A DNA stretch of 64,000 nt from Planctomycetota bacterium (GTDB taxonomy: Bacteria; Planctomycetota; Phycisphaerae; Phycisphaerales; UBA1924), in assembly GCA_018242605.1 (NCBI GenBank), contig JAFEBP010000010.1:54354-118353 (forward strand), given 5' to 3'. Shown piece by piece: positions 21,810-21,885 of this stretch. The translations under genes and the position numbers were made by a program. How positions within the stretch are numbered: position 1 is the stretch's first letter; every line of letters begins with the position of its first letter. The notes beneath the pieces are model-generated. The model did not search any database and was not told the origin of the DNA. It saw only the letters and a program-made list of their open reading frames with translations.

Positions 21810-21885
21810 TGCCCCGTAGCTCAGTTGGCGGAGCAGCGTGCGCCTTTGGCCACGGAGGTCGCGGGTTCGATTCCCGCCGGGGCAG
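21810..21885 (+). tRNA. tRNA gene with canonical core but non-canonical 20-nt anticodon arm; identity unresolved (UUG, UUU or UGG readable in the loop)
   Basis: Acceptor TGCCCCG pairs with CGGGGCA. TA follows, then D arm GCTC-AGTTGGCG-GAGC. The variable loop is AGGTC and the T arm is GCGGG-TTCGATT-CCCGC. The discriminator is G and no CCA is encoded. The anticodon region GCGTGCGCCTTTGGCCACGG cannot form a 5-bp stem with a 7-nt loop. Confidence 0.65.

Follow-up and report, generated by a model that had tools for sequence, protein, structure and literature searches.

Aberrant tRNA calls in bacterial genomes are usually dismissed as pseudogenes. To our knowledge, few bacterial RNAs that use a tRNA body outside decoding have been characterised, tRNAOther and YrlA being the known ones. 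In tRNA punctuation and in the MALAT1-mascRNA system, which are mitochondrial or eukaryotic, tRNA-like modules are cut by RNase P and RNase Z; such processing modules need only the 'top half' formed by the acceptor and T arms, together with the elbow. Frameshift suppressors of the sufD, SufB2 and sufJ type have open 8-nt anticodon loops of fixed length and a matching 4-base codon. tRNAOther of Bacillus cereus is poorly aminoacylated, is not found on polysomes, lies next to a genomic island and has a regulatory role (PMC3399842 and its references 17 and 18). It keeps a readable Trp anticodon, which is used in T-box regulation (PMC3399842).

Here we describe a tRNA look-alike in a 64,000-nt stretch of DNA (the window; contig C1:54354-118353) from the Phycisphaerales MAG G000, an assembly of 4.98 Mb in 32 contigs that is 86.6% complete. 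BLAST searches, first of 61 genomes and later of 401, turned up homologues in G006 and G007, two MAGs of the same genus, and in no others. We compare the three copies, together with the DNA that surrounds them, and weigh the explanations for a gene with the body of a tRNA and a closed anticodon arm.

Results

A canonical tRNA body

The original prediction had seen a canonical tRNA core at this place; the sequence was identical on re-reading and matched Rfam RF00005 over the full length of the model with 46.5 bits (E = 9e-07), above the gathering score of 29 (Table 1). The acceptor stem has 7 bp (UGCCCCG/CGGGGCA) with U-A as pair 1-72, the D arm is GCUC-AGUUGGCG-GAGC with a 4-bp stem and G18G19, the variable loop is AGGUC, and the T arm, GCGGG-UUCGAUU-CCCGC, has a 5-bp stem and a loop of the UUCRA type. 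U8, A9 and A14 are in place, the discriminator is G73, and 20 of the 21 stem pairs are standard. The score is the third lowest in G000 (rank 39 of 41 tRNA matches), and the alignment needs three inserted nucleotides in the anticodon loop as well as a G.G opposition at 27-43. ARAGORN gives aberrant calls: 'tRNA-??? (ttgg)' with a distorted fold or, with the intron option, tRNA-Gln(ttg) with a 3-nt 'intron', GCC. A21 is nearly universal in tRNAs, where it forms the U8-A14-A21 triple, and it stands in every Arg, Lys and Gln tRNA of G000 that was compared at this position; position 21 is G in all three copies.

Table 1. Features at the look-alike locus (positions in the window)
Feature	Position	Strand	Remarks
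Promoter-like site TTGACT-17-GATACT	21437..21465	+	345 nt upstream of look-alike
Leader, ~340 nt	21472..21809	+	From promoter to look-alike; strongly folding
Candidate leader ORF, 47 codons	21483..21626	+	Starts 18 nt past the -10 hexamer
GC-rich hairpin, 13-nt arms, 10-nt loop	21638..21673	+	Inverted repeat I7, 92% complementary
6-bp hairpin CUCCCC-GGGA-GGGGAG	21793..21808	+	Ends one base 5' of look-alike; in MFE fold
tRNA look-alike	21810..21885	+	Canonical acceptor, D, variable and T elements; G21, G73; CCA not encoded
Over-long anticodon arm, 20 nt	21836..21855	+	G.G, 4 bp, bulged C, 3 bp, UUU triloop
Lower-GC stretch, ~1.1 kb	21889..22978	.	Directly 3' of look-alike; absent from syntenic G006 locus
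Orphan ORF, 241 aa	21954-22679	-	Within the lower-GC 1.1-kb stretch

The genome does not depend on the look-alike for decoding, because normal Gln(UUG), Gln(CUG), Lys(UUU) and Lys(CUU) tRNAs and four Arg isoacceptors are all present among its tRNA genes (44 by ARAGORN, 41 by Rfam); these include canonical genes for both Gln(UUG) and Lys(UUU), the two that the original prediction had wanted inventoried. Its hint of a Gln identity did not survive the comparison. With the anticodon arm excluded, the body agrees best, in 45-46 of 56 positions, with Arg(UCU), Arg(UCG), Arg(CCG) and Lys(CUU), while the real tRNA-Gln genes of G000 are quite different, notably in the D arm, and pair 3-70 of the look-alike is C-G. 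Every synthetase known to us that accepts G73 also reads the anticodon, and A20, an identity element for ArgRS, is absent from the look-alike although it is present in the tRNA-Arg genes of G000. Normal charging is for these reasons unlikely, and so is a role for the look-alike as a normal charged decoder.

Some other tRNA calls in G000 are also irregular. Four ARAGORN calls (Val, Ser, Ala and Met, at G000 C1:30686-30779, C27:108584-108664, C28:85625-85709 and C32:250180-250255) have no Rfam match; they do not resemble tRNAs and are probably spurious calls in GC-rich coding sequence. On contig C5, three tRNA-Leu(UAA)-like copies follow one another at intervals of 6-7 kb (317870-317954, 324139-324223 and 331103-331187) and are progressively degenerate (Rfam scores of 41.5, 62.1 and 29.5 bits), the first with a mismatched acceptor end and the third with an altered anticodon loop. 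This series may be the trace of repeated duplication or integration.

An anticodon arm that closes on itself

Twenty nucleotides lie between A26 and the variable loop, where 17 are usual. Folded in isolation, it adopts.((((.(((...))))))). at -8.9 kcal/mol, a structure that makes up 96% of the ensemble and that is one of three folds proposed in the original prediction, the one with GCC/GGC pairs and a UUU triloop. A canonical arm has a 5-bp stem and a 7-nt loop with U33 and a purine at 37; no register of the 20-nt arm combines a 5-bp stem with a 7-nt loop, and the sole register with a 7-nt loop has C33. The covariance model and the folding bear out the earlier statement that the arm is 3 nt too long and lacks a 5-bp/7-nt register; no covariance-model fold with a normal 7-nt loop exists for it. 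Removing GCC from the arm leaves a well-formed loop, CUUUGGC. The extra length is not an assembly slip, since positions 21666-21845, GCGUGCGCCU included, are spanned gap-free by a short-read contig of an unrelated run (X2), and the independent G007 assembly likewise has an over-long anticodon arm.

The arm is 20 nt in G000, 21 nt in G007 and 18 nt in G006 (as assembled), too long and self-pairing in every case, and the loops are CGCCUUUGGC, CGCCUAUUGCA and CCUUUGGC in the G000, G007 and G006 copies, respectively. In G007 the arm consists of 4 bp, a C.A opposition, 2 bp and a 5-nt loop. Since arm length and loop sequence differ in every copy, no anticodon is conserved among them, a degree of variation that would not be expected of a conserved decoder. 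Because the arm closes into an over-long hairpin in the folding model, the look-alike almost certainly lacks a usable anticodon and would not decode.

The original prediction had also raised an expanded-loop decoder. In the form weighed here, the tRNA would be functional, with 8-10 nt in its anticodon loop, and would read a codon of at least four bases or shift frame, for example in the small ORF upstream. ARAGORN can indeed force a 4-base anticodon, UUGG, the loop is well formed once GCC is left out, and the upstream 47-codon ORF has an in-frame AAA followed by GGC, AAAGGC being complementary to the loop sequence GCCUUU. A 6-nt complement is, however, at chance level (about 1.3 expected per 1.1 kb), and AAAGGC at 21564 forms the 3' side of a local leader hairpin; G007 has a different loop and nothing that corresponds to the hexamer, so that no nearby codon site covaries with the loop. 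An open 8-9-nt loop of conserved length was not found in the G000, G007 or G006 copies: the length varies from copy to copy, the loop nucleotides pair with one another, and U33 occurs in no 7-nt register. Nor was a broken frame that needs rescue seen in the neighbouring genes. We consider this explanation very unlikely.

A promoter-like site and a folded leader

The promoter-like site is the only sigma-70-like site in 21100-22100, where shuffled sequences lead one to expect 0.1, and it is identical in G006. In G007 the equivalent, TTGACT-17-CATACT, lies about 430 nt upstream of the look-alike and is again the only such site in the region. The leader between promoter and look-alike, presumably the 5' part of the primary transcript, has a minimum free energy of -160.5 kcal/mol in G000 (z = -4.6, or -4.2 by separate shuffles) and a z of -5.8 in G007; fifteen control windows gave a mean z of -0.6 (sd 1.1) with a minimum of -2.7. 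The opposite strand of the leader also folds well (z = -5.9).

In its core (21591-21699), the leader is 73% identical to its G007 counterpart. It occurs once in G000, has no homologue in any genome searched beyond the two relatives that share the look-alike, and gave no match in an Rfam scan. The arms of the GC-rich hairpin are identical in G007, where its loop is replaced by one that is 6 nt longer; the CUCCCC-GGGA-GGGGAG hairpin is not conserved in the G007 leader. RNAalifold reported 14 'compensatory' pairs on the two leaders, and we do not count these as evidence because the structure was derived from those same two sequences.

The coding status of the leader ORF is doubtful. Its TGA aligns with the stop of a 48-codon ORF in G007, which likewise begins 18 nt past the -10 hexamer; amino-acid identity is about 27% with no codon-position signal, and substitutions in the leader show no 3-base periodicity. 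A minus-strand ORF beneath the leader (21120-21695, 191 aa) was considered and set aside: it has no Pfam match, homologue or codon periodicity.

Public runs were screened as contigs, a form in which uncovered stretches are uninformative for expression. One RNA library (X18, contigs only) yielded five contigs, of which one is an exact 151-nt match to 21490-21640 and none lies on 21810-21885. The 151-nt metatranscriptome contig is a weak hint that the leader is transcribed, DNA carry-over being possible. An array of CCCGATT-type heptads occupies 21304-21345, and a similar one follows the look-alike in the G006 spacer (L040:8250-8280). Contigs of three metagenome runs pile up on the G000 array at 29-424x, against 2-5x on its flanks, so that the motif is common in these communities.

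Pairing is kept between two non-syntenic copies

G006 is syntenic with G000, and its neighbouring genes are about 92-95% identical. G007 is more distant, with coding DNA about 70-77% identical to that of G000, and its look-alike copy lies in a different, non-syntenic neighbourhood together with the same promoter-like hexamers and a homologous leader. The acceptor, D and T stems, G18G19, the UUCRA loop, U8 and A14 are all present in both the G000 and the G007 copies. The two differ by 10 substitutions and 2 indels, which leave all of the 20 standard pairs unbroken. The changes at paired positions, among them two double changes that preserve pairing, turn U-A into G.U at 1-72, U-A into C-G at 30-40 and the G.G opposition at 27-43 into U.G. 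When 10 random substitutions were simulated, the mean number of broken pairs was 4.0 and zero broken pairs occurred in 0.36% of trials (P about 0.004). A covariation pair-counter run on the three sequences was less decisive, with 71 of 500 shuffles reaching the observed score; covariation statistics are weak here because there are only two independent lineages. The look-alike is 86% identical between G000 and G007, true tRNAs having a median identity of 98% (range 78-100%). Judged by these alignments, the look-alike is less constrained than most tRNAs yet far from neutral, and it appears to have been maintained across two diverged, non-syntenic loci.

The G006 copy presents another picture. 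As assembled, it has A in place of U8, a deletion of 2 nt from the anticodon arm and a scrambled T arm, and ARAGORN finds nothing there. The segment in which it lies (G006:C180, L040:7900-10052) is rich in indels: the aldehyde dehydrogenase gene has 16, mostly of 1-2 nt, and the leader has several, while the genes on either side are nearly free of them. The cause would be either errors of hybrid assembly or decay of the region. The G006 contig carries the name 'opera_contig', which we take to denote a hybrid assembly. In addition, the X2 contig comes from a G006-like strain (it shares G006 SNPs) and, with at most one unlisted mismatch, is gap-free over 21666-21845, which excludes the arm deletion in that strain. 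The indel-rich segment, the contig label and the gap-free X2 contig together lead us to distrust the G006 copy.

These data bear on the possibility, already named in the original prediction, that the locus is a pseudogene. In the version weighed here it would be a young one, a duplicated Arg/Lys-type tRNA that took up a small insertion in its anticodon loop, is non-functional and now drifts. Its intact stems would then reflect recency, or a recent transfer between lineages, rather than selection. The differing arm lengths of the three copies fit such an origin, as do the changed U8, the 2-nt deletion, the broken T arm and the missing ARAGORN call of the G006 copy. So does the observation that the look-alike differs between G000 and G006 at least as much as the flanking intergenic DNA, the true tRNA-Arg(UCG) being identical in the two genomes. 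Pointing the same way are a distribution that is both narrow and patchy, the base rate for odd tRNA calls, the other degenerating tRNAs of G000 (the three tRNA-Leu(UAA)-like copies on C5) and the approximately 1.1 kb of lineage-specific DNA that abuts the 3' end. Against drift stand the stems that remain intact after 10 substitutions between G000 and G007 (P about 0.004) and the conservation of promoter and structured leader along with the look-alike at the non-syntenic G007 site. Furthermore, the assignable changes since the split of G000 and G006 (U8, arm deletion, T arm) all fall on the suspect G006 copy, where they are placed because G000 agrees with G007 at those positions. Uncompensated stem changes are absent between G000 and G007; those apparent in G006 come from an indel-rich segment that short-read contigs partly contradict. 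The pseudogene explanation is weakened by the unbroken pairs, the two double changes and the conserved promoter and leader; we judge it possible, at odds clearly below even.

Genomic surroundings and distribution

Upstream of the look-alike, on the plus strand, lie a polysaccharide-synthesis gene, a gene of unknown function and a YggU/DUF167 gene (by Pfam); downstream, on the minus strand, is an aldehyde dehydrogenase gene. These flanking genes look like housekeeping genes. Stop-codon read-through between in-frame neighbours (19724/20864 and 24513/26532) was considered and rejected, the members of each pair being unrelated genes with Pfam domains of their own. GC skew is uniformly and strongly negative (about -0.2 to -0.36) across window positions 15000-30000, whatever the orientation of the genes. 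Synteny around the YggU gene is confined to G000 and G006, so that the rest of the genus offered no empty site for comparison.

The lower-GC stretch begins 3 nt past the 3' end of the look-alike, with a GC content of 0.61-0.62. The distance from the look-alike to the aldehyde dehydrogenase gene is about 135 nt in G006. The orphan ORF within the stretch matched no Pfam family, and a search of 5.8 billion proteins gave no homologue. The placement of this indel, with its orphan ORF in G000 and its absence from G006, is what suggests a remnant attachment site, in which the tRNA-like sequence marks the entry point of a decayed integrative element and has no RNA function of its own. The original prediction had suggested such a remnant, and of that suggestion the 1.1 kb of extra lower-GC DNA stands, without a convincing repeat or an integrase to accompany it. 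Those neighbouring ORFs that were scanned against Pfam gave no integrase or recombinase match; there is no repeat at the indel boundaries; and the only direct repeat of the 3' end, an imperfect one (14 of 17 nt), falls within the aldehyde dehydrogenase gene. An attachment site, moreover, would not keep the 5' half of the tRNA body and its pairing. We hold a bare attachment remnant to be highly improbable. The description of the locus as tRNA-like comes closest among the earlier ideas, with a maintained RNA rather than a relic as its more probable nature.

A 28-nt 'partial copy' of the 3' half at G000:C5:380333 was considered as an att site and discarded, as it is part of a YrlA-like RNA. At that locus (G000:C5:380166-380613; L043:1167-1614), two or three YrlA-like genes stand in tandem. 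Their tRNA-like domains are permuted, and the genes score 67.0, 62.5 and 24.3 bits, where the gathering score is 69; a weak YrlB-like match lies just upstream.

Counting G000, the look-alike was found in three of the nine genomes of the genus, and about 400 genomes of the family yielded no other copy. Pattern scans of 401 genomes of the order, 185,579 species representatives, JGI metagenomes and IMG/VR found no further member, and searches of phage and plasmid collections returned generic tRNA similarity only. Small word shares point, as an indication only, to bioreactors and activated sludge as the habitat. The scans also turned up tRNAs with G21 and a 5-bp anticodon stem on metagenome and virus contigs (L081:585-628 and L087:7196-7239, the latter equal to viral contig L103), with a 9-nt anticodon loop, AGUAAUGAC. 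These are unrelated to the Phycisphaerales gene, and the D-arm motif that they have in common with it was required by the search pattern.

At the G007 locus, a gene of the CCA-adding enzyme/poly(A) polymerase family (L039:7069-8349) lies 1.6 kb from the look-alike, with a YscJ/FliF-family lipoprotein gene and an unknown gene in between. The closeness of the two is probably coincidental, because the orthologous region is on another contig in G000. About 170 nt of the same locus (L039:2900-3090) match several hundred loci in G000 at 70-85% identity and probably represent the N-terminal coding module of a very large family of paralogous proteins, presumably a prepilin-type signal of the kind found in planctomycetes.

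Discussion

The look-alike keeps its acceptor, T and D arms while the anticodon arm varies and yet remains a helix, a pattern that fits an RNA maintained for something other than decoding. We favour, with a probability of about one half, the reading that a structured transcript ends in a tRNA look-alike that does not decode, similar either to tRNAOther or to a tRNA-like processing module. The structure, its conservation and that of the promoter motif and leader are shown here; transcription, processing, lack of decoding and the cellular role are inferred. The gene would derive from a tRNA with an Arg/Lys-type body, retaining the parts that form the L-shape and carrying a closed hairpin where the anticodon should be. 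Transcription would most likely start from the conserved promoter-like site and give a primary transcript of about 420 nt. RNase P may then cut at the 5' end of the look-alike, with 3' trimming and CCA addition to follow; such processing would yield a stable RNA with the shape of a tRNA and fix the 3' end of the leader RNA. Either this product or the uncut RNA would act outside translation. Candidate roles are that of a processing or stability module for the leader and that of a tRNA mimic that binds a tRNA-recognising protein, as tRNAOther does in B. cereus. Counting against this reading are the weak covariation statistics from two lineages, the very narrow distribution, the 86% identity between the G000 and G007 copies, the broken copy assembled in G006, the failure of any RNA-library contig to fall on the look-alike itself and the strong folding of the opposite strand of the leader.

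A bolder version, which we regard as rather unlikely, takes the promoter, the structured leader of 340-430 nt and the tRNA-shaped 3' domain together as a previously undescribed bacterial non-coding RNA in which the tRNA body, its anticodon arm sealed, would serve as a built-in handle for processing and protein recruitment. By analogy, and with the same reserve, that RNA would resemble MALAT1-mascRNA or the tRNA-like domain of tmRNA.

Stems that are kept at two non-syntenic loci, next to a promoter of their own and a folded leader, suggest that a tRNA body has been recruited outside decoding. If the proposed processing is correct, the locus offers a small and tractable case of tRNA-shaped punctuation of a bacterial transcript. 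For annotators it would then carry a caution, namely that 'tRNA-Undet' genes can be functional RNAs. The finding reaches no further than a few uncultured members of the Phycisphaerales, known from metagenomes of bioreactors and activated sludge.

How the look-alike relates to described systems can be read from what it shares with each. With the +1 frameshift suppressors sufD, SufB2 and sufJ (e.g. PMC4238358, PMC7803779) it shares an anticodon arm longer than 17 nt on a normal tRNA body; unlike them, it has 10-11 'loop' nucleotides that pair internally, a length that varies and no covarying codon. With YrlA (Rfam RF02553) it shares a bacterial setting and a non-decoding tRNA-like domain. YrlA, however, is circularly permuted, with a loop-closed acceptor stem and ends that form a protein-binding stem, whereas the topology of the look-alike is normal; its score against RF02553 is 15.4 bits (E = 4.8), below the gathering score of 69. 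Processing modules resemble it in having a tRNA shape at the 3' end of a longer structured transcript, and the conservation pattern matches; they are mitochondrial or eukaryotic where the look-alike is bacterial, and its processing is proposed by us on the grounds given above. tRNAOther differs in keeping a readable anticodon in place of a closed hairpin, in belonging to another phylum and in having no sequence relationship to the look-alike, which is known from its sequence alone. The two are alike in being chromosomal, flagged as aberrant by tRNA finders and dispensable for decoding, and the look-alike borders lineage-specific DNA just as tRNAOther adjoins a genomic island. The look-alike thus belongs with the tRNA look-alikes or pseudo-tRNAs, and by analogy its nearest described relative in kind is tRNAOther.
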